From Candidatus Aerophobota bacterium (GTDB lineage: Bacteria; Aerophobota; Aerophobia; Aerophobales; AE-B3A), in the NCBI GenBank assembly GCA_030602545.1, contig JAUVZN010000002.1, positions 1 to 37,526 on the forward strand: a stretch of DNA of 37,526 nucleotides, written 5' to 3'. The notes beneath the pieces were generated by a model. It did not search any database and was not told the origin of the DNA. It was given only the letters and a program-made list of their open reading frames with translations. Both the position numbers and the translations under genes were made by a program. Positions 6,085 to 35,111 of this stretch are shown one piece after another; the stretch's first letter is position 1, and the number at the start of each line of letters is the position of its first letter.

Positions 6085-6930
6085 CTAAGCAGCGGGACTG
6101 ACAGTTGTGTTAAATCTATACTCAGCCTTGTTCTTCATCATAGCGTAAATGATGTCACATAGCCTCCTCTGGAGGCAGGTAAGGGCTTCTTTCTTGGTTT
6201 TTCCCTCAGAGATCTTTCTCAAGAAGTACTCTCTGGCTTTAGGATTTCTAGGTCTGCTTGATCTATCAGAGCCGATCTGACAAAGAGCTATGTGGTATAT
6301 AGCAGTGTTGAGTTGGCGTCTAGCCCGGTTAGATTTTTTGAACTTGAGTTTTTCGCCCGAGCTTTTTTGCTGAGGAGCTATACCGGCACACTTAGCTAAC
6401 TTATCACTAGAGCTAAATCGGTTTATATCACCAACTTCAACTGTGAGCTTAGCTGCTGTAACTAGATCAACACCTGTTAATGCAGAAAGCTTCATCCCTG
6501 TTTCGCTAACTAACGGCTCCAGTTCTTTGTCAACAATAGCTATCTGCTCTTCAATGAATCTCAAATGCTTTATTAGGTTCCTGATGATACTTGAGTGCAC
6601 AAGGTTCAGGCGAGAAGGCACAGAATCTTTACCGACCAGCTTCAAAATATTTAAAGCCTTTTTAGTAGAGACAGTGTTATTGGAATTATCCCTCAGGTAT
6701 TGAGCGAGTCTATCTACTCCGATACCCTTAAGTAAAGAGGCTATAGGGAACCTTTTCCAAAAGGCTAAGGCTGCTTTAGAGAAGGTATTCTTAAACATGC
6801 TCTGGTAATAGGGGTACTCTCTGTGAAGCAGGATATGAAGTTTATTTTTGATTCTGCTCTTCTCTTTGACTAAAGAGTCGCGCCGGTTGGACAGCTGGTG
6901 AATCGCTAGATAGACCTCATCGGAAAATTC
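6085..6930 (-). mobile_element. IS110-family transposase remnant lacking the N-terminal DEDD catalytic domain
   Basis: The listed ORF 6085..6798 has the Transposase_20-type core (LTGVDLVTAAKLTVEVGDINRFSSSDKLAKCAGIAPQQKSSGEK...RRQLNTAIYHIAL). The same frame stays open upstream without a start codon (EFSDEVYLAIHQLSNRRDSLVKEKSRIKNKLHILLHREYPYYQS) as far as a TGA at 6931-6933. About 110-130 N-terminal residues of a normal IS110 transposase are absent. Confidence 0.8.
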
Positions 6931-7181: not shown

Positions 7182-8864
7182 CTACATCACATTCACCAGT
7201 ACAGTTCCCCAAATGGTAAGGAGAACATTTCCGAATGCAAAGGGCACGGTATATCCCAGGACCGGCACGGGGCTATCCGCTTCTTCTTTTAGCGCATTGA
7301 GAGTAGCAGTGCTAGTTCCCGCCCCGGTCAAAGCACCAAAGAGCAGAACGGGATTCATTTTGAGCACTATCCTGCCGAAGGCCAGGCCAATAATATGGGG
7401 CGTGAGAGTTAAAATGACCCCCGCTAAAATCAGGGATGCTCCGGTCGTTTGCAGGGCGTGGACAGCTCTTGGACCCGCAATCAAGCCAACACAGGCGATG
7501 AAGAGATTCAGTCCCAGGTCGGTGAAGATCCATTGTGCTCCGCTAGGAATCTGTCCAAAAGTGGGATGGACGGCCCTCAGCCAGCCGAACACCAGCCCAG
7601 ATAAGAGAACCCCTCCGCCGACCCCCAGCGTTAACGGTATTCCCATCACCGGTACCATTATTAAACCTAACAAAGTGCCCAGAACACAACCCAGCCCCAC
7701 CATTATCAGATCTGTGGTTACTGTTGGGCGTTCGGGGTACCCCAGGTATTTGACAAGCTTCTCCACATCTTTTTGCGCGCCGGCTATCTCCAAAACGTCG
7801 CATTTATGAACAACAGTGTTTTTCGTGAGGGGCAGTTCATGACCCTGGCGTGTTATCTTTCTCAAAAAACAGCCATGGCCGTGCTCGGTGCTGATCTCAC
7901 CAAGGGTCTTCCCCACCGGCTCGGGGTTGAGGACACAGATATTCATAACCTCACCGACGAGGTCCACTACGCTTCTGTCATCAACCTCGGGACCGATCAT
8001 CTCATCCGCCTTGAGGAACTCTCTACGGTCCCCGACTATTGCGACCACATCGCCCGACTGGATAACCGTGCCCGGCGCGGGATCGATAACCTGATCGGCA
8101 CGCTTCAGCTTCTCGACATCCGCCTTCCTCGGGAACAGCGCCTCGAGTTCCCTTACTGTTTTCCCCAAAATGTTTTCATTCGTAGCGCGATACGCACGAA
8201 GATTAAGCTGCTTGTACCATGAGAAGAGCTCCGGTCTTTTTTCAATTTCCCCAGAACCGCCGGACATCTCCTCTTCCAGTTTTCTGGCCTCGTTCCTCAG
8301 GTCTATTTTCATGAGCCGGGGGATCATTTTGAAAAAGAAGATTAGTCCCGCTGTCCCGAATATGTAAGTTATGGCGTAGGCTACGGCAACATTGCTCTCG
8401 AGTGCAGTCTTATCAGCCGCCGAAATGGACAAGTGCTTGATGGCGCCCTCAGCAGTACCTATCGCCGAGGATTGTGTCATCGCCCCGGCCAGTAGCCCTG
8501 CCGTGGTACCTTTATCAAAACCAAACGACTTCCCCAATAGAATAGCGGTCACTAGTCCTACCAGAGCGAGGAAAAGAGATAACCAGACATAGTGAAGACC
8601 CTCCTTTTTAAGCGCGCCAAAAAACTGTGGGCCCACTTTGTAACCTATGCAGAAGATGAATAAGGCAAAACTGACCGCCTTTAACAGGGGCGGTACTTCG
8701 ATACTCATTTGACCGAGGACGAGCGCGGCAAGAAGGACCCCTGCGGTCGAGCCGATGTTGAAACCGTGGAATTTTATTTTGCCGACAAAATAACCTATCG
8801 CAATGGCCAGAAAGACCGCGATCTGCGGATAACTGCGGCATATCTCAACAATATCATGTACCAT
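7182..8864 (-). CDS. aspT: aspartate:alanine antiporter (AAE family, AspT/YidE/YbjL type)
   Basis: 560-aa ORF with GGAGGG upstream. The N-terminus IAVFLAIAIGYFVGKIKFHGFNIGSTAGVLLAALVLGQ is typical of the family. Two membrane halves flank a soluble middle with two RCK_C/TrkA_C-like segments. It lies 39 nt downstream of the aspartate 4-decarboxylase gene on the same strand. Confidence 0.85.
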   Translation of the reverse strand: MVHDIVEICRSYPQIAVFLAIAIGYFVGKIKFHGFNIGSTAGVLLAALVLGQMSIEVPPLLKAVSFALFIFCIGYKVGPQFFGALKKEGLHYVWLSLFLALVGLVTAILLGKSFGFDKGTTAGLLAGAMTQSSAIGTAEGAIKHLSISAADKTALESNVAVAYAITYIFGTAGLIFFFKMIPRLMKIDLRNEARKLEEEMSGGSGEIEKRPELFSWYKQLNLRAYRATNENILGKTVRELEALFPRKADVEKLKRADQVIDPAPGTVIQSGDVVAIVGDRREFLKADEMIGPEVDDRSVVDLVGEVMNICVLNPEPVGKTLGEISTEHGHGCFLRKITRQGHELPLTKNTVVHKCDVLEIAGAQKDVEKLVKYLGYPERPTVTTDLIMVGLGCVLGTLLGLIMVPVMGIPLTLGVGGGVLLSGLVFGWLRAVHPTFGQIPSGAQWIFTDLGLNLFIACVGLIAGPRAVHALQTTGASLILAGVILTLTPHIIGLAFGRIVLKMNPVLLFGALTGAGTSTATLNALKEEADSPVPVLGYTVPFAFGNVLLTIWGTVLVNVM

Positions 8865-8903
8865 AACTTACCCTCCTAGATGGCTTCACGCGAACCGTCG
8901 GCA

Positions 8904-10496
8904 TCAGCTTTTGGACGACTTCCAACTGTCATAATAATCCGCCAAGAGATCACTTATACCCTTACCAATAGCCTTGTAAGCGCTGTCCGGAAGATTGGCG
9001 AGCGAAACACGCACTGACATGTTCGGCGCGTCAAATCCGCCTCCATCCATCAAAACGATGGACTTTTCATCTGCCAGGCGCCATACAAAGTCTATCGGCT
9101 CGTAGTTTTTCACCAGATGAGCGGCAAATTCCTCGCCGTACCTGGTTCTGGCAAGCGCAGGAATGTCAATGGTTGTATAGTAGTGCGCGTCGTATTGGTT
9201 TTCCGGATGCGGGGTCCCGAGAGCCGCGTACAGCGCTTTGAATCTGTGGGTTACTATAGATTGCGCCTCTTGCTTATACTCTCCTTTTTTATCGATGAGG
9301 CAGTAGAGTGAAAAAAGAGCCATAAGGACCTGCTGTGGTGTCGAAAGGCCGGCGGTGTGATGAAGCGCCACCGACCGGCTGTCGGCAACCATCCTGTCTA
9401 TGAGTTTCATTTTATCCGGATCGAGCACTACCGTGCTGTACCGGTCATACAGCGCTTTTCTGTCTTTCTCGGGCAGCGCGGTGATCATCTTGTCTAAGAC
9501 ATTGTCCTCGTGAATCCCGATGACGCCTAAGCGCCAGCCCGTTGCGCCGAAGTATTTCGAATAAGAATAGACAAGGATCGTGTTCAGCGGGGCAACGGCC
9601 GCGAGCGATCTAAAGTCGTTGACAAAAGTTCCATAAACGTCATCCGTAACAATTATGAGATCTTTTCTTTTCGTCCGGACTAGTTCACCTATTTTTTCGA
9701 GGGTGCTCTCTTGTATACTGACCGAGGTAGGATTGGAAGGATTGACAAGGAAGAAAGCCTTCACTTCAGGATCGGTAAGCTTCTCGATCTCTAAATCGGG
9801 ATATTGCCAGTCCGAATTCTCATTCTGGTTTATCTCAAGCTCAACGAACTCGTAGTCATTCAAACGTGGGATCTCGAGATAAGGCGTGAAGATCGGAGTT
9901 CCCAGCGCGATCTTGTCTCCTTTGTGAAGGAGCTTGTTCTCCATAAGGCTGGTGAAGATGTAATCCATCGCAGCGGTCCCACCTTCGGTCGCGAAAAGAT
10001 CGAACTTTCCAGGAGGCGGGTGTCCGCCGCACATTTCCTGCTCGAGGTACTTATGAACTATCTTCTCGCTGCACATGAGCATCCGGTCAGGTACAGGATA
10101 ATGGTCACCAAGTATGCCGTCCACCATTTCACGGATAAATTCATCAGGATCGATCTTAAGTTCGTCGTGCACGTAAACAAACGCTTCGCGCAGAAACCCG
10201 ACACCGGGGGCACCTGAATGCTTCCCCGCGAACTTCTCGAATCTCCCTGCTATGCCCTTTTTTTCAGGCGTGCCTCCCAGGCGGGGAGGGTGGGGCTTTC
10301 TCTGCGACTCTTCCACGGCGAAAAGCCCCAGCTGAAAGAACCCCTGCCGCGGTGTCATTGTTATCCAGTTAGGGTTCCCACGGCCGGCATTTAGCATCAC
10401 CCTCTCGTGATGTGTCTCTGTCATTGTGATCAGCTTGTTCTTAAGTTCGAAAGGACTCAGGGCCTCATAGCGTCTTTCTTCTTCAGAACCTTTCAT
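8904..10496 (-). CDS. asdA: L-aspartate 4-(beta-)decarboxylase, PLP-dependent
   Basis: The ORF is collinear with remembered AsdA sequence blocks: LSPFELKNKLI, MLNAGRGNPNW, FATEGGTAAM, VNPSNPTSV, VYSYSKYFGATGWRLGV (PLP lysine) and HTAGLSTPQQV. The listed ORF starts at 10529, but ATG 10496 (MKGSEEE) has AAAGGAG upstream and is the likelier start. Confidence 0.9.
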   Translation of the reverse strand: MKGSEEERRYEALSPFELKNKLITMTETHHERVMLNAGRGNPNWITMTPRQGFFQLGLFAVEESQRKPHPPRLGGTPEKKGIAGRFEKFAGKHSGAPGVGFLREAFVYVHDELKIDPDEFIREMVDGILGDHYPVPDRMLMCSEKIVHKYLEQEMCGGHPPPGKFDLFATEGGTAAMDYIFTSLMENKLLHKGDKIALGTPIFTPYLEIPRLNDYEFVELEINQNENSDWQYPDLEIEKLTDPEVKAFFLVNPSNPTSVSIQESTLEKIGELVRTKRKDLIIVTDDVYGTFVNDFRSLAAVAPLNTILVYSYSKYFGATGWRLGVIGIHEDNVLDKMITALPEKDRKALYDRYSTVVLDPDKMKLIDRMVADSRSVALHHTAGLSTPQQVLMALFSLYCLIDKKGEYKQEAQSIVTHRFKALYAALGTPHPENQYDAHYYTTIDIPALARTRYGEEFAAHLVKNYEPIDFVWRLADEKSIVLMDGGGFDAPNMSVRVSLANLPDSAYKAIGKGISDLLADYYDSWKSSKS

Positions 10497-10714
10497 GGTT
10501 CGCTCCTTTCTGTGGCCGTATATTTGCAATAATCTACAGGGACGGTTCCTGTTTTTAGTTGATTCGAGGCCAGACTTGTCCCCTATTTCACCGGATCAGG
10601 ACTCCGGGATAATGGTCAAGCAAACAGAGAATGTTCCCGGCGCGTCCAGGCCTAGCCAGACATCGACCATTTCCCTGTTCTTTTTGTTCGGTTCAATCTT
10701 GTAAATATATGGTT

Positions 10715-11400
10715 TCAGATTTTCCCGTCTTTCTCGTAAGTCCTGGTTTCGACAGAGAAATGATACGGCTCCATCAGGTCAAATTTGACCTCCTCTCCTT
10801 TGACCGAGACGATCATGTAGTTGAAAAAGCCGTCTTTATCCGGGGGAGCGGCGAAGGTTGCCCCACCGCCTCCTAGAGTAACGAAGGGAACTCCTTTTTC
10901 TTCTCCAGCTCGCTCTCCAACCATTTGCGCTGCTGGCCCGTGATTTCCCCCACCTGGTCGGGGACCCGGGTATTCAGAATGATGAAAGTGACGCCCTTCT
11001 GATCGAATGAAAAATAATCTTTCTTCTGTCCGGTCATCCCTATGAAATAGTTGGTGGTTAGAGGATTCTGAAAGTCGTGGTTGCCGGGTACAAAATAGAT
11101 CTTCGGGGCCATGGTCGAGATAAGTTTACCCATATTCGAATATTCTATCTTGAGCTGCTCCTCTGAATCGCTGTAGCCAAAGACAAGGTCACCGGTATGG
11201 ACGACCAGATCGGGGTTGATAAGGTTGGTTTCGGTCAAGATCCTTTTGTAAGCCACGGGTATCGGCACTCCCTGGAAAGCTACTCTCGAGCCACCGAAGA
11301 CCACAAAAATAACATCATCGTCCTTGGTTTCGGCGTGCAGAGCCGGCTGGAGCAATAATGAGAAGACAAAGAGAAAAACAGCGATCTTTTTAAGATTCAC
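10715..11400 (-). pseudogene. secreted metallophosphoesterase, frameshifted and apparently missing an internal segment
   Basis: ORF 10873..11400 has a signal peptide plus the HTGDLV and VPGNHD motifs and ends just after WLESELEKKK. ORF 10715..10924 continues in another frame (GVPFVTLGGGGATF...). The shift lies in the run GAAGAAAAAGG. The HHP/GHxH region expected between the two parts is absent. Confidence 0.55.
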
Positions 11401-12174
11401 GGTCGATCCTCCTTTTCTTTTGGCATTTGAGGATGGTCTCTTATCGTGGTCTTGGTTAGGATACCATCTTTAGACTATAGTGACAAGGGTTTAAATGGAA
11501 GCTTTTAAGGAATATTGTGCTTACATCTGCTCAATTTGAAAGAGAACTGGCCAGTAAGAGGACCAGGGATGAATGATAGGAAAGATAAATATATCCCTAT
11601 GAGTGCAATCAGATATATACAAAAAAATGTCATTCATACGTGAAAATTAAGATATGCAGGTAGGTTTTACGAAGGGAATCATGAATCAATAGTGCCTGAA
11701 GAAATACTTAGTCAAATTCAGAAATATCAAGAGAGAAAAAGAGGAGACGGAGACAATATAAAATCTTTTTATTTTGGGTTGGTAAGACGTAGTCAATGTG
11801 ATAGCGCAATGTCCCCATGCTTTACCAACAAGAAGTCTGGAAGAAAGCTTCCAAAATTATCTAAAAAAGTTTTTAAAAGGAGCCGAAAAAATACATGTGG
11901 TTGGCTGGACTGGAGATGTTGACAACAAATCCACCCCTCCTTAGAAGTCTTGAAGACCGGCTCTCCCCAAGAATACTATCTCTCATAATCAATGGAAAGT
12001 ATAGCATTAAAAACCCAAAATCTAGCCTCGCTGATTATCTAACGCAACACCTGGAACCTATTATCATAACTATCTATCGTTTTCTGTCCGGCCTACGTGT
12101 CAAGTCGTTTAACTAGGTAACCCAGTGGGTTGTTGTTGGGCCATATAAGAGAGAGCTCTGAATAATTCGGAGGT

Positions 12175-12203
12175 TTGACAGTCGGCGGGTGAGAAGATAT
12201 AAT
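12175..12203 (+). promoter_or_regulatory. consensus sigma-70 promoter of the trp operon
   Basis: TTGACA (12175-12180), exactly 17 nt, then TATAAT (12198-12203). Both hexamers are perfect. Confidence 0.7.
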
Positions 12204-12217
12204 TAAACAAGATAATT

Positions 12218-12260
12218 GAGATTAGACTAGTAGAGATAGGCTGAGACGAGATGAGGAGAG
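12218..12260 (+). promoter_or_regulatory. array of nine (G/U)AG triplets; candidate TRAP (MtrB) binding site
   Basis: The triplets are GAG 12218, TAG 12223, TAG 12228, GAG 12233, TAG 12237, GAG 12243, GAG 12248, GAG 12253 and GAG 12258. Spacers are 1-3 nt, and eight of the nine starts lie on an exact 5-nt lattice. Confidence 0.6.
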
Positions 12261-12290
12261 AAGGTACCTGCATTTACCGGGCTCATCTCG
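12247..12290 (+). promoter_or_regulatory. antiterminator hairpin of the trp leader
   Basis: CGAGATGAG (12247-12255) is perfectly complementary to CTCATCTCG (12282-12290). Inner GGTA/TACC pairing (12263-66 / 12275-78) is also possible. The 5' arm lies inside the triplet array and the 3' arm overlaps the terminator. Confidence 0.55.
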
Positions 12291-12303
12291 AGCACGGTTT
12301 TTT
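12276..12303 (+). terminator. intrinsic terminator (attenuator) upstream of trpE
   Basis: ACCGGGCTC (12276-12284) pairs with GAGCACGGT (12290-12298) at 8 of 9 positions. The loop is ATCTC and the stem runs directly into TTTTTT (12298-12303). Confidence 0.65.
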
Positions 12304-12338
12304 AGTGGCTATTTACCCTCCACCTTCTTAGGAGGTGA

Positions 12339-13835
12339 GTGGTGATGTACTATCCCGACGAGGCAAAGTTCAGAGAGCTCGCCAGAAAGGGTAATCTTAT
12401 CCCTGTTTATAAGGAGAGTCTGGCTGATCTAGAAACTCCGGTTTCCGCCTTTATGAAGCTAGGCCAGGGAAGTTTTTCTTATCTTCTGGAAAGTGTGGAG
12501 AAGGAGGAAGGGCTGGGAAGGTATTCATTCTTAGGGATCGATCCCTTTCTTCTTTTCGAATTCAGGGGAACAAAGGTTATCCTCCATGATACTCGGACCC
12601 ATGAAACTCTCTCGGCCAAGAGCGGACCCCTGGAGGTTTTGAAAGAAGTTATGGCCAGATACAAGGTAGTTAACCTGCCGGGTCTACCCCGTTTTTTTGG
12701 CGGAGCAGTGGGATATGTAGGGTATGATGTCATAAGATTTTGGGAAGATGTTCCTCGAGAGAACCCGGATGATTTGAATCTACCGGGCGCCCTCTTTATG
12801 TTTGCTAACATCTTGCTCATTTTTGATCACCGTGACCATAAAATAAAGGTGGTCTCCTATGTTTTTCTGGATGGCAGGAAGCCGCTTGGGAGAATTTATA
12901 AGCAGGCTATTAAGAAGATAGATGAAGTGATGGTTAAGCTAAAGAATTCCTCTCCTGTAGTAGATCTTGGAGAGGGATGTCCAGGAGGCAGCCGGATAGC
13001 AAAAGTTGTATCTAACCTAACCTCCTCTTCTTTTGAAGGGATAGTGATAAAAGCCAAGGAATATATCAGGGAGGGAGATATCTTTCAGGTGGTTTTATCC
13101 CAGAGACTGGCCAGAAAAATATTCACTTCCAGTTTCAATATATACCGAGCTCTGCGTTCTCTTAATCCCTCTCCTTATATGTACTATTTGAGGTGTGGGG
13201 ACTTTGAAATAGTGGGGTCTTCTCCAGAGATCCTGGTGAGAGTGGAAGAAGGGGATGTAACTCTTCGCCCCATTGCTGGAACCAGACACCGGGGAAAAAA
13301 TCAAAGTGATGATAAGGCTTTGGCTAAGGAACTTCTGGCGGATCCCAAGGAAAGGTCAGAGCATATCATGCTGGTAGATCTGGGTCGTAATGATGTGGGA
13401 AGAGTGTGCCGATATGGGACGGTTAAGGTTAGTGAACTAATGGTGGTTGAGAAGTATTCCCACGTGATGCATATAGTTTCTAATGTGAAAGGGAGACTCA
13501 AGCGGAATCTAGATCAATACGACCTTCTCAGAGCTTGCTTTCCTGCCGGAACGGTTTCCGGAGCCCCTAAAGTAAGGGCTATGGAGATCATTGAGGAGCT
13601 CGAATCTACCGCCCGGGGCCTCTATGCAGGAGCCCTGGGGTATTTCAGTTTTTCCGGAAATATGGATACCTGCATTATTATTCGAACTATAATCCTAAAA
13701 GATGGATTTGCCTATATTCAGGCAGGAGCAGGAATTGTAGCTGATTCTAATCCCCGGAGGGAATATCAGGAGACAATGAATAAAGCACAAGCCCTCATCA
13801 GAGCCATTGAGATGGCTGAAGAAGGGTTGGAATAG
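12339..13835 (+). CDS. trpE: anthranilate synthase component I
   Basis: 498-aa ORF with typical TrpE blocks: LLESVE, the PSPYMYY-type motif (NPSPYMYYL), IAGTRHRG, LLADPKERSEHIMLVDLGRND, GAPKVRAMEIIEELE and GIVADS. GGAGG lies at 12331-12335, so ATG 12345 is the likelier start than GTG 12339. Confidence 0.95.
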   Translation: MVMYYPDEAKFRELARKGNLIPVYKESLADLETPVSAFMKLGQGSFSYLLESVEKEEGLGRYSFLGIDPFLLFEFRGTKVILHDTRTHETLSAKSGPLEVLKEVMARYKVVNLPGLPRFFGGAVGYVGYDVIRFWEDVPRENPDDLNLPGALFMFANILLIFDHRDHKIKVVSYVFLDGRKPLGRIYKQAIKKIDEVMVKLKNSSPVVDLGEGCPGGSRIAKVVSNLTSSSFEGIVIKAKEYIREGDIFQVVLSQRLARKIFTSSFNIYRALRSLNPSPYMYYLRCGDFEIVGSSPEILVRVEEGDVTLRPIAGTRHRGKNQSDDKALAKELLADPKERSEHIMLVDLGRNDVGRVCRYGTVKVSELMVVEKYSHVMHIVSNVKGRLKRNLDQYDLLRACFPAGTVSGAPKVRAMEIIEELESTARGLYAGALGYFSFSGNMDTCIIIRTIILKDGFAYIQAGAGIVADSNPRREYQETMNKAQALIRAIEMAEEGLE

Positions 13836-13865: not shown

Positions 13866-14438
13866 ATGATTCTGATTGTCGACAATTATGACTCCTTTGT
13901 ATATAATTTAGTCCAATATCTGGGGGAACTGGGACAGAAACTGGTAGTTTACCGAAATGACAAAATTACCCTGAGGCAGGCAAGGAGAAAGAAAATAGAA
14001 GCCATCGTCATCTCTCCCGGCCCGGGAAGACCGGAGAATGCTGGAGTTTCCAATGATATCATTCAGTACTTCTCTGGCCGGCTGCCCATCCTGGGAGTAT
14101 GCCTGGGTCATCAATGCATAGGACAGGTTTTTGGAGCAAGAATTGTCCATGCAAAACGCCTTGTGCATGGGAAAACCTCGCCTGTCTATCACTACGGAAA
14201 GGACATCTACAGGGGTATCGAGAATCCTTTTATAGCTACCAGATATCATTCTTTAATTATCAAAGAGAATAGCCTACCTGAGTGTCTTGTAAGATGTGCC
14301 TGGACCCAGGAAGGAGAGATTATGGGGATAAAGCATAAGGACCTGTCCGTCTTTGGAGTGCAGTTCCATCCAGAATCCATTCTGACCAAGGTGGGTAAAC
14401 AGGTACTCAAAAACTTTCTCGAAGTACAGGATTTATAG
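13866..14438 (+). CDS. trpG: anthranilate synthase component II (glutamine amidotransferase)
   Basis: 190-aa ORF starting MILIVDNYDSFVYNLVQYLGELG. The catalytic Cys is in GVCLGHQ and FGVQFHPES lies near the C-terminus. Confidence 0.95.
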   Translation: MILIVDNYDSFVYNLVQYLGELGQKLVVYRNDKITLRQARRKKIEAIVISPGPGRPENAGVSNDIIQYFSGRLPILGVCLGHQCIGQVFGARIVHAKRLVHGKTSPVYHYGKDIYRGIENPFIATRYHSLIIKENSLPECLVRCAWTQEGEIMGIKHKDLSVFGVQFHPESILTKVGKQVLKNFLEVQDL

Positions 14439-14481: not shown

Positions 14482-15492
14482 ATGATTAAAGAAGCTATCA
14501 ACAAAATAGTCGAAGGTTGCAGTTTAGGGGAAGAAGAGGCTGGACGCGTCATGGGAGAAATTATGGGGGGGAGAGCCACCCCCGCCCAGATAGCCTCTTT
14601 CTTAACAGCGCTAAGAATGAAGGGAGAGACGGTAAAGGAAATTACCGGCTGTGCCAGGGAGATGCTCAAGAGAGTTGACTCTTTTAATCTAAAAGAAGAT
14701 ATCTTGGTGGATACCTGTGGGACAGGAGGCGATAGAAGTGATACCTTTAATATTTCCACAGCTACCGCTTTTGTAGTAGCCGGGGCTGGTTTAACGGTGG
14801 CCAAGCATGGCAACAGAGCTCTCTCCAGTCGCTGTGGCAGTGCAGATGTACTGGAGACCCTGGGGGTTAAATTGGATCTACCAAAAGAAAAGGTAAAAGA
14901 GTGTCTTGGGAAAGTAGGAATAGGTTTTCTCTTTGCCCCTCTCTTCCATCGAGCTATGAAGCACGCCCTGGCTCCTCGCCAGGAGATGGGAATTAGAACT
15001 ATTTTTAATATCCTGGGTCCTCTTACCAATCCCCTGGGGGCAAATGTTCGTCTTATTGGTGTATACGATCCTTCTCTTACAGAGACTCTGGCTATGGTTC
15101 TGAAGAATTTAGGGGTGAGGGGTGCATTTGCTGTTTGTGGAGAGGATGGGCTGGATGAGATCAGCATTATGGGAAGAACCAGGACTACTCAACTTAAAGA
15201 TGGATTAATTGAAACTTATTATATAGAGCCCGAAGACTTTGGAATGAGAAGAGCTCCTTTGGAGGAGATAAAGGGAGGCAGCCGGGAGGAGAACGCCTTC
15301 ATTCTCCAGAGAGTGCTGGAAGGGGAAAAGGGACCAAAAAGAGATGTTGTTCTTCTCAATAGTGCTGCTTGTCTGGCAGCGGCAGGCCTGACCGGGGATC
15401 TAAAAGAGGGAATTAAGATTGCTGAGAATTCTATTGACTCAGGAATAGCCAGAGAGAAACTGGAGTTCTTGATTAGCTTTACCAATAATTAG
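14482..15492 (+). CDS. trpD: anthranilate phosphoribosyltransferase
   Basis: 336-aa ORF with DTCGTGGDRSDTFNISTA, KHGNRA and FNILGPLTNP. Confidence 0.95.
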   Translation: MIKEAINKIVEGCSLGEEEAGRVMGEIMGGRATPAQIASFLTALRMKGETVKEITGCAREMLKRVDSFNLKEDILVDTCGTGGDRSDTFNISTATAFVVAGAGLTVAKHGNRALSSRCGSADVLETLGVKLDLPKEKVKECLGKVGIGFLFAPLFHRAMKHALAPRQEMGIRTIFNILGPLTNPLGANVRLIGVYDPSLTETLAMVLKNLGVRGAFAVCGEDGLDEISIMGRTRTTQLKDGLIETYYIEPEDFGMRRAPLEEIKGGSREENAFILQRVLEGEKGPKRDVVLLNSAACLAAAGLTGDLKEGIKIAENSIDSGIAREKLEFLISFTNN

Positions 15493-15552: not shown

Positions 15553-16329
15553 TTGATTTTAACCCAGATATTGGATAATAAGCTAAAGGAAATTGCCCAG
15601 CGAAAAAAAAGGGTTCCTCTGCAAGCTCTAAAATCCAAAATAGCCGCCCTTGCCCCGACCAGGAATTTTAGGGAAGCTATATCCTCCCGAGCAGAAATTA
15701 ACATCGTTGCTGAGATTAAAAAAGCCTCTCCCTCAGTAGGTACCGTAACTCAGAATTATGATCCTGAGAAACTTTCCAGGATTTATGAGGAAAATGGCGC
15801 CTCAGCTATCTCTGTTTTGACCGACAAGAAATTCTTTGGAGGGGATTTAGGCGACCTGACCAAAGCTAAGAAAGTTAGCTCTTTGCCCATTCTGGCTAAG
15901 GAGTTTATACTGGATAAGTACCAGATTTATGAGGCCAGGCTTTTGGGAGCAGATGCTATTCTCTTAATTGCTCGTATATTAAGTAGGGAAAAACTAAAAA
16001 AATATTTGGATTTAGCCTCAAAGCTTGACCTGGAGTGTCTGGTTGAAATCCACGAAGAGAAGGAGTGGGAAAAAATTAAAGATCTTCCTCTGGATATAGT
16101 TGGCATTAACAATCGGAATCTGGCAAGCCTCAAGCTAGACATAGGAATGAGCTTTAATCTTATCAAAAAGATACCTTCGGATAAAATAATTGTCAGTGAG
16201 AGTGGAATTGATAGCCGAGAAGATATTCATAGACTAAGAGAGGCGGGGGTGGATGCCTTCTTAATAGGGGAGGCTCTCTTAAAAAGCAGGGATGTGGGAA
16301 GAAAACTGAGAGAACTTGTAGCAAGATAA
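15553..16329 (+). CDS. trpC: indole-3-glycerol phosphate synthase
   Basis: 258-aa ORF with a TTG start and AAGGA 6 nt upstream. It has ILxxILxxK, an N-terminus typical of the family, plus AEIKKASPS, ISVLTD, GINNRNL and ESGI. Confidence 0.9.
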   Translation: MILTQILDNKLKEIAQRKKRVPLQALKSKIAALAPTRNFREAISSRAEINIVAEIKKASPSVGTVTQNYDPEKLSRIYEENGASAISVLTDKKFFGGDLGDLTKAKKVSSLPILAKEFILDKYQIYEARLLGADAILLIARILSREKLKKYLDLASKLDLECLVEIHEEKEWEKIKDLPLDIVGINNRNLASLKLDIGMSFNLIKKIPSDKIIVSESGIDSREDIHRLREAGVDAFLIGEALLKSRDVGRKLRELVAR

Positions 16330-16342
16330 CCTCTTAAAAAAG

Positions 16343-16975
16343 ATGACCAGGATCAAAATTTGCGGAATAACCAACAAGGAGGATGCGTTTGAGGCAGCTC
16401 ATCTCGGAGTAGATGCCCTTGGTTTCGTATTTACTCATAGTCCAAGAAGGGTGACTCCCAGGATGGTTCAAGAGATTGCTCAGCTTCTTCCACCTTTTAT
16501 CTCTCGGGTGGGAATTTTTGTTAATGAGGACAAAGAAAAAGTAGAAAAAATAGCCAAAAGTTGCCATCTGACTACTCTACAATTTCATGGAGAAGAATCT
16601 CCTTCTTACTGTCAAGGATTTAGAGAAAAAATAGTCAAGGCTTTTTCCATCAAGGACACCTCTGTATTAGAAAAGATCCCTGAATATGAAGTAGATGCCT
16701 ACCTTCTTGATAGTTACTCTCCTTTAAGATATGGTGGGACAGGAAAAACTTTTGACTGGGATATTGCCAGAGAAATTAAGGAATTCGGAGTGCCTATTAT
16801 CCTCTCGGGAGGGCTAAATCCTGATAACGTTAAAGAAGCCATAGAAAGGGTTAGACCCTATGCAGTGGATGTTGGTAGTGGAGTAGAAGCAAGGGAAGGA
16901 AAGAAGGATCCAGAAAAACTCAAAGATTTTGTGAGGGCAGTGAGGGGGGCAAATGAACTATTCACGAGTGCCTGA
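16343..16975 (+). CDS. trpF: phosphoribosylanthranilate isomerase
   Basis: 210-aa ORF starting [10 protein letters not shown], then LQFHGEE and [10 protein letters not shown]. It overlaps trpB by 23 nt. Confidence 0.9.
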
Positions 16976-18158
16976 TAAAGAAGGACATTTTGGTCGTTTC
17001 GGGGGAAAATTTGTTCCCGAGACAGTTATGCCTGCTTTGAAGGAATTAGATGAAGCTTACCAAGAGGCAAAGAAAGATAAGCAGGGTTTTCAAAAAGAGC
17101 TGAGCGGGTATCTCAGGGATTATGCCGGCCGTCCCACTCCCCTTTTCCTGGCCAAAAGGTTAACCCATCACCTGGGAGGGACCAGAATTTATCTGAAAAG
17201 AGAGGACTTAGCCCACACCGGCTCCCACAAGATTAATAATACCCTGGGACAGGTCCTGTTGGCCAAAAAAATGGGCAAGACCAGAATTATTGCTGAAACA
17301 GGAGCTGGTCAGCATGGAGTGGCTACAGCTACGGCAGCAGCTTTCTTTGGTCTTCCCTGCCGGGTTTATATGGGGGAGGAAGATATGAGGCGCCAGCGCC
17401 TCAATGTCTTCAGAATGCAGCTTCAAGGAGCAGAGGTAATTCCTGTCACCTCGGGCACAGCTACCCTGAAAGATGCTATTAATGAAACCATAAGGGATTG
17501 GGTAACCAACATCCGGACTACTCACTATGTTTTAGGATCAGTGGTTGGTCCCCATCCTTACCCGGTGATGGTAAGGGATTTTCAATCGGTCATTGGCCGG
17601 GAAACCAAAAAGCAGATCCTCACCTCTGAGGGAAGACTTCCGGGGTATCTCATTGCCTGTGTGGGAGGGGGAAGTAACTCTATGGGTCTTTTCTACCCCT
17701 TTTTGGAAGATAAAGTTGAACTTATCGGAGTTGAGGCAGGAGGATGGGGGCTTTCTACCGGCAAGCATGGAGCGAGCTTGGCCAGAGGAACAGTGGGTGT
17801 TCTTCATGGGTCGAAAAGTCTTCTTCTACAGAATGAGGATGGGCAGATTGTAGCTACGCATTCTCTGGCGGCTGGCCTGGACTACCCCGGGGTAGGGCCA
17901 GAGCATGCTTATCTGAAGGAAACGGGAAGAGCCAGGTACGAAACGGTGACCGACAAGGAGGCTCTGGAGGCTTTTGAACTACTTTCCCGACTTGAGGGAA
18001 TCATTCCCGCGCTGGAAAGCGCTCATGCAGTGGCCTATGTCAAAAAGATTGCTCCTAAACTCGCCAAGGATGAAATTATGGTGATCAATCTTTCCGGCAG
18101 AGGTGATAAGGATGTGGAGCAGGCAGCTAGCATAATTTCCCATCCAGAAGGCAAGTGA
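16953..18158 (+). CDS. trpB: tryptophan synthase beta chain
   Basis: 401-aa ORF with HTGSHKINN (PLP lysine), [20 protein letters not shown] and LSGRGDKD. Confidence 0.97.
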
Positions 18159-18159
18159 G

Positions 18160-18957
18160 ATGACCCGGATAGAAGAAAAGCTCTATCAACTGAGAACCGA
18201 GGGTGAGAAGGCCTTCATTGCCTATCTGACAGCGGGATATCCGGATTTGGAGACTACCAGGGCCTTAATCCTGGAACTGGAGGCACGGGGAGTGGATGTG
18301 ATAGAATTAGGAATTCCCTTTTCTGATCCTCTCGCTGATGGACCTGTTATTCAAAAGTCCTCTCAATGGGCACTGGAGAAGGGGATAAGTTCAAGGAGAG
18401 TTTTGGAACTGGTGAGGAAGGTGCGTCAAAAGACACAGATTCCCCTGGTGCTAATGGGCTATTATAATCCCATCTTTAAATTTGGAGAAGCGGACTTTGT
18501 GAATGTTTCATCGGATGCAGGAGTTGATGGTCTGATAGTTGTTGATGTTCCCCCTGAGGAAGCTGGTCAGCTCAAAGCTGAGGCTGAGAGAAATAAACTG
18601 AATCTTATCTTCCTTCTTACCCCCGTTAGCTCTGAGGAGAGGATAAGATTAGTATGTGAGTGGAGCAGCGGCTTTATTTACTGTGTGTCCTATACAGGGG
18701 TTACCGGAGGGGGTGAGAAGGAGGAGGAGGCACTGGCGAGTTTAGTAAGGAAAGTAAGAACCCTTACCGCCACACCTGTGGAGATAGGATTTGGAATCTC
18801 ATCTCCCGATGATGCGAAAAGGGCATCCAGGATAGCTGACGGGATAATTGTAGGTAGTGCCATTATTAAAGAGATTGCATCTCATACCTCTCACCATAAT
18901 TTGGTTGGTAGGGTGGGGGAGGCGGTGGAGAAGCTAGTTAGAGCGACGAAAACATAA
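18160..18957 (+). CDS. trpA: tryptophan synthase alpha chain
   Basis: 265-aa ORF with ELGIPFSDPLADGPVIQ, YxNP, GVTG and VGSAI. The ATG lies 1 nt after the trpB stop. Confidence 0.95.
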   Translation: MTRIEEKLYQLRTEGEKAFIAYLTAGYPDLETTRALILELEARGVDVIELGIPFSDPLADGPVIQKSSQWALEKGISSRRVLELVRKVRQKTQIPLVLMGYYNPIFKFGEADFVNVSSDAGVDGLIVVDVPPEEAGQLKAEAERNKLNLIFLLTPVSSEERIRLVCEWSSGFIYCVSYTGVTGGGEKEEEALASLVRKVRTLTATPVEIGFGISSPDDAKRASRIADGIIVGSAIIKEIASHTSHHNLVGRVGEAVEKLVRATKT

Positions 18958-19065: not shown

Positions 19066-20001
19066 TTAGAAGCGAAGAGAAAGGGAGAACTGGTGAGTAT
19101 TTCCCAGTGTCTGGTTATAGGCGAAGGCATAGTCAAACTTAGTTCCTCCCTTTTTCCTTAGATCTCCCAGAGGGAAGTCAAAACCTATTCCCCCACACAG
19201 AGTCAAAAAGGAATCTTTTTGGAACAACATGCTTGTCCCCGCTCTCAGGGCAAAGCTGGGGGTTATCCACCACTCTCCCCCCAATCGAACATCCTTCAAG
19301 AGATCTTTCCCCGAAATATCGACGTCTAGAGCTAACAGAAGATGAGGGCTGAATCTATAGGCTGTGCCAATTTTTACATTCATAGGGATAGATTCTCTTC
19401 TTCCGGTGCTCCATCGGTTCACCGAGACTAAGTCCTGAACATTAACCCCCCAGGAGACCTTTTCCTTTCGCATAAAATAGGCCAGGTCCATACTGTACCC
19501 AGTGCTTCCTCCCCAGGGACTGGTCTGTTTGAGGTACTTCAAATTTACCCCCCAGGAACTGATTATTCTCCGGGAAGATGATTTGGAGGGAGAGATAAAT
19601 TGTCCGTAGGAATAAGAGAACATATCGCAGTCCCATCTCTCCGGCTCAAGATTGCTGGAGAGGTGAGCCCAGCTAATGCCTCCTGCTCCCATGATGGTGG
19701 GAGGTACCACCCAGAATAAAAAGTTGTAGGCGAGAAGGCCGAGTCCGTAAAGATCACTGTACATAGCTCCCACTTCTTTCTGGGTAAGCTGTACCAGCCC
19801 GGCTGGATTAAAAGTGGAGGCCCCATAATCGTCGGCAACTGCTACGAAACTTCCTCCCATTCCTATGGCTCGGGTACTGGCGGGTAGGGCGGTGAAACCA
19901 CTCTCAGTGACATGTAGATAATCGGTAGCCTCTCCCGGACTAATAACAGGCCAACCTCCTATAAAGAAGAGAAAGATGAAGGAGAGAAAGATTATTTTCA
20001 T
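19066..20001 (-). CDS. outer-membrane beta-barrel protein (PorV/PorQ- or FadL-like; family uncertain)
   Basis: 311-aa ORF with a signal peptide (MKIIFLSFIFLFFIGG...). It has a TRAIGMGGSFVAVADDYGASTFNPAGL motif, alternating hydrophobic strands and a C-terminal ...LSLRF ending in Phe. Confidence 0.6.
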   Translation of the reverse strand: MKIIFLSFIFLFFIGGWPVISPGEATDYLHVTESGFTALPASTRAIGMGGSFVAVADDYGASTFNPAGLVQLTQKEVGAMYSDLYGLGLLAYNFLFWVVPPTIMGAGGISWAHLSSNLEPERWDCDMFSYSYGQFISPSKSSSRRIISSWGVNLKYLKQTSPWGGSTGYSMDLAYFMRKEKVSWGVNVQDLVSVNRWSTGRRESIPMNVKIGTAYRFSPHLLLALDVDISGKDLLKDVRLGGEWWITPSFALRAGTSMLFQKDSFLTLCGGIGFDFPLGDLRKKGGTKFDYAFAYNQTLGNTHQFSLSLRF

Positions 20002-31535: not shown

Positions 31536-34500
31536 CTATGCCGATTGCTGTGCAAGCCGCCCCAGCTCGTCCGCGCTCGGGCAACCCAGTCGGGCCAGGT
31601 GATTGCAGAGGAGCCGCAGCTGAGGACGCGGGACGGTGGAATCAACAAGACTCCGGACCAACTGCTCCACTTCTCTGCAATGTAGAAAGGGTTCGTGAGC
31701 ATTTGAAAGGAGATGTTGAAGCAGGCGAGTTAATGGCTCCGGATACTTGCGAGCGAACTTCTTTTCCACGAGTTCATAGTAAAGCTGGGTGTGCTTGAGA
31801 TCGGGAGCGGAGGTGGCGCAGATTTTCTCCACCACTACCGGAAAAATCGGCTCGAGTGGGAGGATCCATAGCAGCATTTCCGCCTTTTCAGCTTCACTGA
31901 GTAGCAAGGGAACCCCTGTGTTTCGCTGCGACCAATAATCATCCATCCAACGGCGCCACAAGTCTTGTATAGATTGCTTATTCACACCAAGAAGTTGGGA
32001 ACCTATGCTAGAGGCCCAGCTTTTGTGACTGCCTGGGTCGGCTTCCAACAGAAATTGCTGCAACCAGCCGTCGCTCATGGGGTTGCTTGAGCTATACAGT
32101 GCAATACTCGCAAGGTGCTCACAGAAACGCTCACGCTTACTCAAGAGCTCGCTCGATAATTTGGGAAAAGCCTGCTCGTAGAGGGGTAACAGGTTGGGGA
32201 GGAGTGCTTCGTGCCATCGTCCCCAGTCAAGATATCCGTGCCAGGCCTGTTGAGCCTGTCTTTCATCCCCGGACCAATCAAGCAAAGGTAGGATTTTCTC
32301 TCGGCACCACTCAGCATCTAGAGCAAACAAGAAGCGGAGTTGACTCGCCAGCAGTACTCGTCCCAGTTCAGCTGTAGAGGACGTGCCGGAAATTGCTTTC
32401 TCAAAGTACTGTTTGTATTTCATGGGAAGACCCCTCCACCTTTGCCCAGTCTGAGCGTGTCTCTTTGAAAGTGCGCGTAGCCAGAACTCCACAGTCTTAC
32501 CTCCCGGATGATTGATAGCTCTTAATAGCCAGTCCTGCGTCTCAAGATCTTCCTCGTTCAAAAGGTTTTTGGCACACGCGTCAAAGAGTTTACCAGCAAG
32601 GTTTTCGGCCAATGACAAACAGGACAACGGAATCACGCCGTGTTCCCTGCTGATTCCCTGTTCTAGAAGTTCTGCTACAGAATGTGGAAACCTCAGGAGC
32701 TCTCCGCGATGCGTAACCAGATTGAGGACTCTCCTCCATTGATTCTTTGTCAATGGAGTCTTCTGCCAACCACTCAAGACACTTCCCCAGATATCCGACC
32801 TCCACTCCCTTCTTTTCGCGAGAGCCACCACAAGCTGCCAGCTCCACCTGAAAGACTGGCCTGCTGCGTTCGTGATTGCAATTAAAAGGCCTTCTCGGTC
32901 TGGCCCGGCAAACTCATCTCCTTGATATGTGAGGAGCCAACCAACCTCCTCATCCGGATTCTTATTCAGTAGCTCTTCAACGGTCACTGGACTTCGCGTC
33001 CCCTCCCACTCGACAGTCCAGGTACGAAAATCGAGACGGTCCGGTGGCCTGAAATCGGGATGGGCTTCCTCCATTGCTTTGAGCCGGTCTGCAGCCAAGG
33101 AGCAACTAGGTGCTGCGCGACACAGCCAAACGAAGAGGTTGTATGCCCGCTTTTCACGTCTCCTCCTGCCAAGGGCCTTCGCATCCGGTCCCACCGGACC
33201 ACGGTCAATGCGTTTCAGAAGACGCGTTCGGGCTGGTCTGCTAGCATTTGCATAAACCTGAGCCAGGAGGCGAAAGACCTCGTGTTTCAGATGAGAGACA
33301 TATAAATAGTCGTTGTCCAGGAGCCAGCCGATCTTTTCATCTGAATCCATTTGCGGACTTTCGGTAACGCCATGAATAGCAAGTCTTTTCAGCAGTGGAA
33401 CGCCAGAGGTACTCCATGCCTCAATTGCTGCACGAGCCCGGCCAGGCTCCTGCTGAAGCATCCATTCAATGAGGTCGCGAGCCGCATCAATAACCAGGTC
33501 TAGTTTGTCGCCGTAGCGGTCTTGTTCGTGGAGCTCTATCGCCGAACGAAGGAAGCTTACCGGATCCGAGTGCTCGGTAGCCTGACCCATAGCGCGGAAG
33601 GAAAAGTGAGCTTTGATTAGATGGTTGGTCAGAAGAGGTTCTAGTTCCTGATAGAAATGGGCAAAATTAGGTCGAAAAATGACTTCCCATGACCGCTTCA
33701 GCAAGTGCTCGTCCCCCTCAACAACAATGTCTGCGTCAACCTTTTGCGTCTGCGAGCCACTTTCATCAGGTAAGCTAAAGTGAGACCTCAGTTTCAAGTG
33801 TGGCCTACTGAGATATTCAAAGAGTAAGAGAGCCGTGATTTTGTCCTCTGGGTATTGACAATGCTCAAGAACATAACCCAGCAGACGTAGTGGCTGGTTC
33901 GACGGTTCACCCCTGAGCAAGACTGTGACCCACCTTGCACGAGTACATGGATCAGTACGCGGCTTACCAAAGGCCAGTATGTGAGCAATCGCTCTCTGAA
34001 GGGCCGGGTTAAGCTGTTGTCCTTGGCGCTCAACAAGGGCCAAAGCATCGTCAGGATATTTGCATGCGAAGTTTTGTGCAAACCAGGTCGCTAGCACTTC
34101 GACCTTTTCATCTACGGGCTCATTCGGTTGAAAGAGCTTTCGAAGTATACCTTTACTTTCTACCCAACGTAGCCATTCCGGAGTGTGTGAGTAGCGCGCA
34201 AAAAATCGGAGAGTTACCAAATCCGTTAGAGCACCCTCAATGTAATCAGCAGTCTCTTTGTCGAGCGGCGGAGTCGATCTGACAATGTCCCTAATCTGCT
34301 GCTCGTGATCCAGCGCTCCCATTTTGCTAAGCCTGACCCAAGCAGCGAGGGCTTTAGTTAGTGCCCTATGTCTGTTAGGTTCATCGCTCGGGCGGTAAGG
34401 GACGGGGACAATCCCAAGGAACTTCCAGCGTTCATCTTGTCCTGACGGTGTGAATGCATAGCGGGAAGTCTTTGGCACCAGACCACGTGCCAGATACCCC

Positions 34501-35111
34501 ATGACTGGGTCGTCGTGACTGTACCCTACGAAAACGACCGTATATTTGGCGAACATGTCATACAAGAAGCGAGTCGCCCAGCCCTCGGTAAGATAGGCCC
34601 GACCGAAGTCGGCATCTGTCAGAACGAGACTTTGCGCCCCCTTGTCTACGAAACCGTGCAAATACACAAGCCCATTGAATTCCCGACCAAGGGGGAGTGC
34701 CGGTCCGCAGTAGACCTCCAGGTCCTCCTTGAAGAGCTTCTGAGCCACGATTGAGAAGTGTCTGTCGAAGTTCGTCGTAACAACACGAACTGTGGCGGGC
34801 GATTGGAAAAGCGACAATATGGAATAGTGCAGCCGGGTAGCCTTTGAGCCAGGGTCACTAATCATCTTCCAAGCTCTACGATGAACCAGGACACCCCTTT
34901 CCGCCTCTAACCTACCTAGGAACCGATCGAGCGGCTCGTCTTTTGCGGGTACTAAAGCTCCTGCCGCTACTTGCATCGCCAATTGCTCGAAATCCGGTAA
35001 GTTTGAAGGTGGGCCAATAGAAATGCCTGCACCTGCAAAGACCACCAGCTCTTGATTTCTTTGGGCATCTATGAGAGATTGTGGAAGGTCGACACTCTCT
35101 GTGATCCGCAC
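31536..35111 (-). CDS. large SIR2-domain protein: N-terminal SIR2_2-type NADase-like domain plus a ~930-aa helical C-terminal region (DSR-like defence candidate)
   Basis: 1191-aa ORF with a GTG start and GGGGG 9 nt upstream. The ordered SIR2_2 hallmarks are VVFAGAGIS (aa 23-31), VVTTNFD (Asn114), LVYLHG (His152), LVLTDADF and VVFVGYSHDD. No Walker A/B motif is present. The remainder is Trp/Leu-rich and predicted helical. Confidence 0.85.
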   Translation of the reverse strand: MRITESVDLPQSLIDAQRNQELVVFAGAGISIGPPSNLPDFEQLAMQVAAGALVPAKDEPLDRFLGRLEAERGVLVHRRAWKMISDPGSKATRLHYSILSLFQSPATVRVVTTNFDRHFSIVAQKLFKEDLEVYCGPALPLGREFNGLVYLHGFVDKGAQSLVLTDADFGRAYLTEGWATRFLYDMFAKYTVVFVGYSHDDPVMGYLARGLVPKTSRYAFTPSGQDERWKFLGIVPVPYRPSDEPNRHRALTKALAAWVRLSKMGALDHEQQIRDIVRSTPPLDKETADYIEGALTDLVTLRFFARYSHTPEWLRWVESKGILRKLFQPNEPVDEKVEVLATWFAQNFACKYPDDALALVERQGQQLNPALQRAIAHILAFGKPRTDPCTRARWVTVLLRGEPSNQPLRLLGYVLEHCQYPEDKITALLLFEYLSRPHLKLRSHFSLPDESGSQTQKVDADIVVEGDEHLLKRSWEVIFRPNFAHFYQELEPLLTNHLIKAHFSFRAMGQATEHSDPVSFLRSAIELHEQDRYGDKLDLVIDAARDLIEWMLQQEPGRARAAIEAWSTSGVPLLKRLAIHGVTESPQMDSDEKIGWLLDNDYLYVSHLKHEVFRLLAQVYANASRPARTRLLKRIDRGPVGPDAKALGRRRREKRAYNLFVWLCRAAPSCSLAADRLKAMEEAHPDFRPPDRLDFRTWTVEWEGTRSPVTVEELLNKNPDEEVGWLLTYQGDEFAGPDREGLLIAITNAAGQSFRWSWQLVVALAKRREWRSDIWGSVLSGWQKTPLTKNQWRRVLNLVTHRGELLRFPHSVAELLEQGISREHGVIPLSCLSLAENLAGKLFDACAKNLLNEEDLETQDWLLRAINHPGGKTVEFWLRALSKRHAQTGQRWRGLPMKYKQYFEKAISGTSSTAELGRVLLASQLRFLFALDAEWCREKILPLLDWSGDERQAQQAWHGYLDWGRWHEALLPNLLPLYEQAFPKLSSELLSKRERFCEHLASIALYSSSNPMSDGWLQQFLLEADPGSHKSWASSIGSQLLGVNKQSIQDLWRRWMDDYWSQRNTGVPLLLSEAEKAEMLLWILPLEPIFPVVVEKICATSAPDLKHTQLYYELVEKKFARKYPEPLTRLLQHLLSNAHEPFLHCREVEQLVRSLVDSTVPRPQLRLLCNHLARLGCPSADELGRLAQQSA

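Follow-up and report, generated by a model that had tools for sequence, protein, structure and literature searches.

A probable TRAP-type attenuator in the leader of the trpEGDCFBA operon of a Candidatus Aerophobota bacterium

The stretch of DNA analysed here (hereafter the window, 37,526 nt) comprises forward-strand positions 1-37,526 of contig JAUVZN010000002.1 in the Candidatus Aerophobota bacterium assembly GCA_030602545.1, and carries a tryptophan biosynthesis operon, trpEGDCFBA, directly 3' of a short leader in which a consensus promoter is followed by a regular array of (G/U)AG triplets and by two RNA helices that compete for the same bases. This organization resembles that of the leaders read by the tryptophan-activated protein TRAP (MtrB) in Bacillus. 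The features of the leader and of the operon are the following.

12175-12180, plus strand: -35 hexamer TTGACA (promoter scan; invariant in four relatives)
12198-12203, plus strand: -10 hexamer TATAAT after a 17-nt spacer (promoter scan)
12218-12260, plus strand: nine (G/U)AG triplets, candidate protein-binding site (sequence, shuffles, conservation)
12247-12255, plus strand: antiterminator 5' arm CGAGAUGAG, within triplets 7-8 (pair probability 0.94-0.95 in free RNA, 0 with 12218-12260 single-stranded)
12282-12290, plus strand: antiterminator 3' arm CUCAUCUCG, common to the terminator (folding; invariant in relatives)
12276-12303, plus strand: terminator hairpin and U6 (folding; 0/28 bases variable)
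12345-13835, plus strand: trpE, anthranilate synthase component I (TIGR00564, E=2.5e-176)
13866-14438, plus strand: trpG (NCBIfam equivalog match)
14482-15492, plus strand: trpD (NCBIfam equivalog match)
15553-16329, plus strand: trpC (NCBIfam equivalog match)
16343-16975, plus strand: trpF (NCBIfam equivalog match)
16953-18158, plus strand: trpB (NCBIfam equivalog match)
18160-18957, plus strand: trpA (NCBIfam equivalog match)

The sigma-70 promoter at 12175-12203 scores 12/12 and is the sole perfect match in 10800-13000; given the usual distance of 6-8 nt to the -10 hexamer, transcription is expected to start at about 12209-12211. The array that follows reads GAG, UAG, UAG, GAG, UAG, GAG, GAG, GAG, GAG, with starts at 12218, 12223, 12228, 12233, 12237, 12243, 12248, 12253 and 12258 and with spacers at/ac/ta/a/gct/ac/at/ga (2, 2, 2, 1, 3, 2, 2 and 2 nt), and eight of the nine starts fall on an exact 5-nt lattice (12218+5k). 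Two further, overlapping triplets, TAG at 12231 and GAG at 12256, are absent from an earlier note on this DNA. When both strands of the window were scanned for chains of (G/T)AG triplets with starts 4-6 nt apart, the nine-triplet chain was unique and the next longest had four members; a chain of nine appeared in 0/300 dinucleotide-preserving shuffles of the complete window (maximum 7), and shuffles of the purine-rich leader alone reached at least nine triplets in 1 of 5000. Many (G/U)AG triplets placed 2-3 nt apart in a 5' leader are what is expected of a TRAP site, and such an array is found here.

The 3' triplets take part in a predicted structural switch. The segment CGAGAUGAG (12247-55) is fully complementary to CUCAUCUCG (12282-90), and the resulting helix is present in the minimum-free-energy fold. 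A second hairpin, formed by ACCGGGCUC (12276-84) and GAGCACGGU (12290-98), has eight pairs, the loop AUCUC and one G.A mismatch (12280/12294), owing to which a simple terminator scan missed it (12276-12298), and it runs into U6 (T6 in the DNA, 12298-12303). Since both structures use 12282-12290, antiterminator and terminator are mutually exclusive. The RNA that was folded (12210-12303) begins at the predicted start and ends with the U tract, and a bound protein was mimicked by keeping 12218-12260 single-stranded. In the free RNA the antiterminator forms with a pair probability of 0.94-0.95 and the terminator with one of about 0.02, and upon blocking of the triplets the antiterminator falls to 0 and the terminator pairs rise to 0.85-1.0. 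The array thus overlaps an antiterminator that excludes the terminator through the shared 12282-12290, and the genes directly 3' of the leader are those of tryptophan biosynthesis, as expected of an attenuator controlled by TRAP. The earlier note had described the perfect TTGACA-17-TATAAT promoter, the nine triplets with their spacers and lattice, the perfect complementarity of 12247-55 and 12282-90, and the hairpin 12276-84 / 12290-98 that leads into U6 and excludes the first helix; all of these hold at the same positions, the folding with and without the triplet constraint that it had suggested yields the shift just given, and its likening of the leader to the regulatory logic of the B. subtilis trp leader is sustained by folding, shuffle statistics and the pattern of conservation.

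The same operon was found in four relatives, L001-L003 (Logan and ENA assemblies) and L004 (JGI 3300029812), with 90.6-98.7% identity in the operon DNA; similarity to the window sets in some 25 nt before the -35 hexamer and becomes near-perfect from GGAGGTTTGACA onwards. Variation over the leader (12204-12344) was counted in four distinct sequences, those of the window, L001 (identical to L003), L002 and L004, with the following result.

12218-12260, plus strand: variable triplet bases, 0/27
12226, 12240 and 12241, plus strand: variable spacer bases, 3/16
12276-12303, plus strand: variable terminator and U-tract bases, 0/28
12204-12344, plus strand: variable remaining leader positions, 20/70

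By Fisher's test the triplets differ from spacers plus remaining positions with p=0.0017 and from the spacers alone with p=0.045; for the terminator, compared with spacers plus remaining positions, p=0.0009. The triplets are frozen while the spacers drift like unconstrained leader, which is the signature expected of a protein that reads triplets; the pattern that the earlier note had proposed to look for in close relatives is therefore present, weakly, in four closely related sequences. Eighty distant trpE loci from a metagenome scan for TrpE (50-59% identical) served as negative controls, and a chain of at least seven triplets was found in 0/80 of them, 72 having at least 150 nt of upstream sequence. 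The positive control, a locus from an uncultured Bacillaceae (L104) with spoIVA, hbs, folE-mtrB, hepS/menH/hepT, ndk, aroF-aroB-aroH and trpE, has a trp leader in which 11 triplets, with one long spacer among them, are accompanied by a strong terminator. A scan of viral contigs for the leader gave one match, due to chance.

A further structure lies between the terminator and trpE, the conserved start of which is ATG 12345, because the relatives read GTA where the window has GTG at 12342; their called products have 496 aa. Two elements of this region are relevant to translation.

12313-12345, plus strand: Shine-Dalgarno (SD) hairpin (minimum-free-energy fold)
12259-12265, plus strand: AGAAGGU at the 3' end of the array; its complement, ACCUUCU (12322-12328), lies in the anti-SD segment

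In the hairpin, the anti-SD segment 12313-12327 pairs with GGAGG (12331-12335) and with the A of ATG 12345. Over the four sequences 91% of the cells of this hairpin are paired and the changes are one-sided; for the AGAAGGU/ACCUUCU pairing the figure is 96%, and one pair occurs as A-U, G-U and G-C across the relatives. For the free RNA of L004, folding predicts the AGAAGGU/ACCUUCU pairing, with the SD partly freed, and the blocked RNA regains the SD hairpin; the free RNA of the window does not adopt the AGAAGGU/ACCUUCU pairing. By analogy with the translational control exerted by TRAP in B. subtilis, this helix might couple protein binding to trpE translation, a suggestion that we put forward tentatively.

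Taken together, we consider it probable that the leader is a TRAP-type attenuator of trpEGDCFBA and that its reader is a ring protein of the TRAP family whose gene lies elsewhere in the genome. According to this hypothesis, transcription would start about 7 nt after the promoter, and the first 50 nt or so of the RNA would comprise the nine (G/U)AG triplets with their 5-nt period. When tryptophan is scarce the array would be free, the last triplets would pair with 12282-12290 to form the antiterminator, and the polymerase would read into trpE. When tryptophan is plentiful, a multi-subunit RNA-binding protein activated by it, most likely the TRAP ring (MtrB, PF02081), would wrap the triplets and block the antiterminator, so that the hairpin 12276-12298 and U6 would stop transcription near 12303. 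The conserved hairpin that buries the trpE SD could add a translational layer, as in B. subtilis.

The putative partner protein was sought in several ways. In the window no TRAP open reading frame (ORF) was found, the best tblastn and phmmer E-values being above 2 and a family hidden Markov model (HMM) built from 427 TRAP sequences giving no match, in agreement with the earlier note, which had seen no mtrB-like ORF there. Likewise, the three methods detected no TRAP in L001-L004, in the flanks of the relatives or in the 80 distant trpE loci; the Bacillaceae control L104 scored E=4e-41. Among 1.84 billion cluster representatives, searched exhaustively with HMMER, only 127 were TRAP representatives, and none of the source names looked up says Aerophobota. 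The contigs of the most divergent TRAP types were compared to the window by G+C and tetranucleotide composition, for which true relatives give correlations with the window of r=0.92-0.96. One candidate, P0371, was discarded as an ordinary Bacillaceae locus. Outside Bacillota, members of the TRAP family are named in metagenome-assembled genomes (MAGs) of candidate division WOR-3 (MEO0275874.1 and others), Candidatus Hydrothermales, Synergistales (MDD4365360.1) and Halanaerobiales, and in one genome labelled Planctomycetota. The expectation of the earlier note that TRAP control would not occur in a diderm is weakened by the MtrB annotations in WOR-3, Hydrothermales, Synergistales and Halanaerobiales, and as these are other diderm lineages, a TRAP in Aerophobota is plausible. 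A search of the literature for TRAP or its RNA sites beyond Bacillota returned nothing, nor did searches for KEGG K06285 or on TRAP in Aerophobota.

Several observations weigh against a TRAP attenuator. The antiterminator of the Bacillaceae control leader was not recovered by minimum-free-energy folding, and consequently the fold test is supportive rather than diagnostic and does not amount to a validated classifier. The relatives are very close (90.6-98.7%), so that the conservation rests on few substitutions in effectively two lineages, and since antiterminator and terminator are invariant in the four sequences they provide no covariation evidence either way. The array has nine rather than 11 triplets and one 1-nt spacer. 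In the window itself, the SD hairpin is predicted in the free and in the blocked state alike. No TRAP was found in the window and L001-L004, which total about 86 kb and represent a small part of a genome, and about a dozen contigs with TRAP or TRAP-like genes, from metagenomes and genomes, differ from the window in composition (r=-0.03 to 0.69, G+C 36-63%).

The lack of a canonical TRAP in these 86 kb of lineage DNA bears on an alternative that we regard as rather unlikely, namely that the same RNA logic is used by another reader, either a member of a divergent TRAP-like clade known only from environmental sequences or an unrelated protein, and that no canonical tryptophan-binding TRAP is involved. 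A TRAP-like reader that has lost the tryptophan loops would sense tryptophan, or another signal, differently, and an unrelated one would have converged on the repeat code. About 60 clusters of TRAP-like proteins of 72-86 aa do exist in metagenomes and unannotated MAGs (P0243, P0276, P0279 and P0405-P0462; loci L087-L089 and L101-L103; the P0243 subfamily was scanned in species genomes). They form two subclades, one genome being labelled Planctomycetota, and Aerophobota is near the PVC (Planctomycetes, Verrucomicrobia, Chlamydiae) group. These proteins keep IKALEDGV, ERLDxGEV and [IV]R[IV]RG[KH]AE, the counterparts of E36/K37/D39 and K56/R58, and are without the GLTRGxDT and QFTEHTSA tryptophan-binding loops. 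One of their contigs, L101, has the G+C of the window (47.8%), but its tetranucleotide correlation with the window (0.60, and 0.50 for L102) falls among the values of unrelated loci and under those of most segments of the window itself, and none of the TRAP-like proteins could be placed in Aerophobota. Moreover, the absence of a canonical TRAP rests on a small fraction of the genome, and the GAG/UAG lattice exactly matches what canonical TRAP reads.

A second alternative dispenses with a regulated switch: the leader would be a purine-rich segment serving mRNA stability or translation enhancement, the hairpin and U6 a leaky constitutive terminator or an irrelevant structure, and the likeness to TRAP sites a coincidence. 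The array does lie within a purine-rich stretch, the closeness of the relatives means that short divergence time could partly explain the conservation, and the folding z-scores of the leader are modest (-1.9 and -1.3). Nevertheless, shuffles of this same purine-rich leader produce nine triplets in just 1/5000, triplets and terminator are frozen against 19-29% variation in the spacers and other leader positions, and the overlap of array, antiterminator and terminator directly 5' of trpE is the specific design of TRAP leaders; hence we judge this explanation improbable. Far less credible still is control by another RNA mechanism, such as a T-box sensing uncharged tRNA-Trp, a leader peptide with Trp codons, or a riboswitch. 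T-box and leader-peptide control are common means of trp operon regulation outside Bacillus, and a 26-codon ORF (12251-12331, plus strand, MRREGTCIYRAHLEHGFLVAIYPPPS) overlaps the antiterminator 3' arm and the terminator. However, no Rfam family matches at gathering score anywhere in the window, and neither the T-box (RF00230) nor the Trp_leader covariance model gives a match in 11400-12500 even at E<=10. Rfam also gives no match to the control TRAP leader of L104, and consequently its silence excludes a T-box and says nothing on TRAP sites. A leader of about 95 nt to the U tract is, in addition, too short for a T-box, and the 26-codon ORF, the sole one in the leader, is probably not a leader peptide, since it has no Trp codon and its stop is not conserved in L004.

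The host is known from the proteins of the window. Clusters at 90% identity or more join these to the 'Candidatus Aerophobetes bacterium' proteins TET43076.1, TET28956.1 and TET27536.1 (NCBI/UniRef names), and Candidatus Aerophobetes is now Candidatus Aerophobota, an unplaced candidate phylum. Phylogenomics groups Aerophobota with Poribacteria and Hydrogenedentes, near the PVC superphylum (PMC3909097), and both lines of evidence place the host far from Bacillota. The earlier note had taken a nearby outer-membrane beta-barrel gene to argue for a diderm host; the host is an Aerophobota and no relative of Bacillus, as the protein clusters and the phylogenomic grouping (PMC3909097) indicate, and the identity of that gene is only plausible. 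The gene in question, a 311-aa ORF (19066-20001, minus strand), adjoins trpA and occupies the same place in all relatives; its product has a signal peptide, the C-terminus ...HQFSLSLRF and a weak match to UPF0164 (E=0.02), and plausibly is an outer-membrane beta-barrel. A single-sequence AlphaFold model was uninformative (predicted local distance difference test, pLDDT, 34).

On the 5' side, no convincing gene was found in 11400-12339, the 940 bp upstream of trpE, and 11400-12174 (about 770 bp) is poor in ORFs. Synteny with the close relatives is lost about 25 nt 5' of the trp promoter (compared with L001 4380-4650 and L004 7438-7690), and blastn of 10500-12175 against L001-L004 and the rest of the window detected no similarity. 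Farther 5', an aspartate decarboxylase/antiporter pair and a phosphoesterase gene occur in the window, and gap-pgk-tpi-secG, in L004 with extra genes, occurs in the relatives; opposite the ORF-poor stretch the relatives have secG or HIT-family genes. About 5 kb upstream of the rearranged region lies a gene for a 237-aa protein with an IS110/IS116/IS902-family transposase domain (6085-6798, minus strand), which may be related to the synteny break. The aspartate 4-decarboxylase and aspartate:alanine antiporter genes (AspD/AspT) stand side by side at 7182-10529 (minus strand), and such a pair constitutes a proton-motive energy module driven by decarboxylation. At the other end of the window, a 1191-aa protein that combines a SIR2-like domain at its N-terminus with DUF4020 at its C-terminus (31536-35111, minus strand) is a possible defence gene product, and a DUF1670 protein is encoded nearby (36448-37158, plus strand).

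The genomic context of the TRAP homologues recovered outside Bacillus is also of note. In several G+C-rich, non-Bacillus lineages the TRAP gene lies 5' of or near the 6-phosphofructokinase gene and not by folE, and these contigs show no (G/U)AG lattice: TRAP is directly upstream of pfk in L085, L086, L090, L091 and L092, and L087-L089 carry pfk, a PAS histidine kinase gene and a TRAP-like gene. In L101 the TRAP-like gene adjoins one for a transporter of the Na+:neurotransmitter-symporter family. In the homologues of WOR-3 and Hydrothermales (P0210, P0300-P0319), HTEILSxGE and KIVG take the place of the HSEKLDKGE and KVRG of Bacillus, so that I, S and V replace the RNA-contact residues K37, D39 and R58; these proteins may read a different RNA motif or none.

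TRAP is the textbook case of protein-mediated attenuation and is regarded as a speciality of Bacillus and Firmicutes. Its regulatory network is said to have evolved 'in Bacilli' (PMC11725872). Judged by its anatomy, the Aerophobota leader is a member of the class of TRAP sites, in a phylum where it was unexpected. Its presence near the PVC superphylum would mean either that the RNA site and the ring protein moved or persisted beyond Bacillota, or that another protein reads the repeat code. Combined with the MtrB proteins annotated in WOR-3, Hydrothermales, Synergistales and Halanaerobiales MAGs, the leader makes the evolutionary range of TRAP testable, and as a compact natural variant, with nine triplets, no 5' stem-loop and a clean thermodynamic switch, it could be of use in mechanistic and synthetic-biology work.

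In B. subtilis, TRAP activated by tryptophan uses K37, K56 and R58 to bind a site of 11 U/GAG repeats that lie 2-3 nt apart, and when bound prevents the antiterminator from forming, so that the terminator forms (PMC7430163; PMC11725872). Like the leader of the B. subtilis trpEDCFBA operon, that of Aerophobota lies directly 5' of trpE and has several (G/U)AG triplets 2-3 nt apart; the last of these overlap an antiterminator, with which an intrinsic terminator competes, and a hairpin is able to bury the trpE SD. In contrast to B. subtilis, there are nine triplets instead of 11, with one 1-nt spacer, and only about 9 nt separate the array from the predicted start site, which leaves no room for the 5' stem-loop of Bacillus. 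Furthermore, trpEGDCFBA is an autonomous operon with its own consensus promoter rather than a section of an aro supraoperon, the host belongs to Candidatus Aerophobota, and a TRAP gene was not found in the roughly 86 kb of lineage DNA.

Other known systems share part of this design. With T-box and Trp-codon attenuators the leader has in common that a trp operon would be controlled by a choice between terminator and antiterminator, and it differs from them in having no Rfam match, no Trp codons in the leader ORF and too short a leader. The TRAP sites of B. subtilis trpG (pabA), trpP and ycbK have about nine triplets, so that nine suffice for TRAP binding; they overlap the ribosome-binding site and affect only translation, whereas in Aerophobota some 70 nt separate the array from the SD and a terminator is coupled to it. 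The recognition site of HutP, which controls the hut operon of B. subtilis, consists of two groups of three UAG triplets spaced by 4 nt, and binding of the protein prevents termination. As in the proposed attenuator, a ligand-activated oligomer there recognizes repeated NAG triplets in a leader and decides between termination and read-through. A HutP-type site was nevertheless rejected for the Aerophobota leader, in which, instead of two three-triplet clusters, nine contiguous triplets with spacers of 1-3 nt, mostly 2 nt, are placed so that binding would favour termination.

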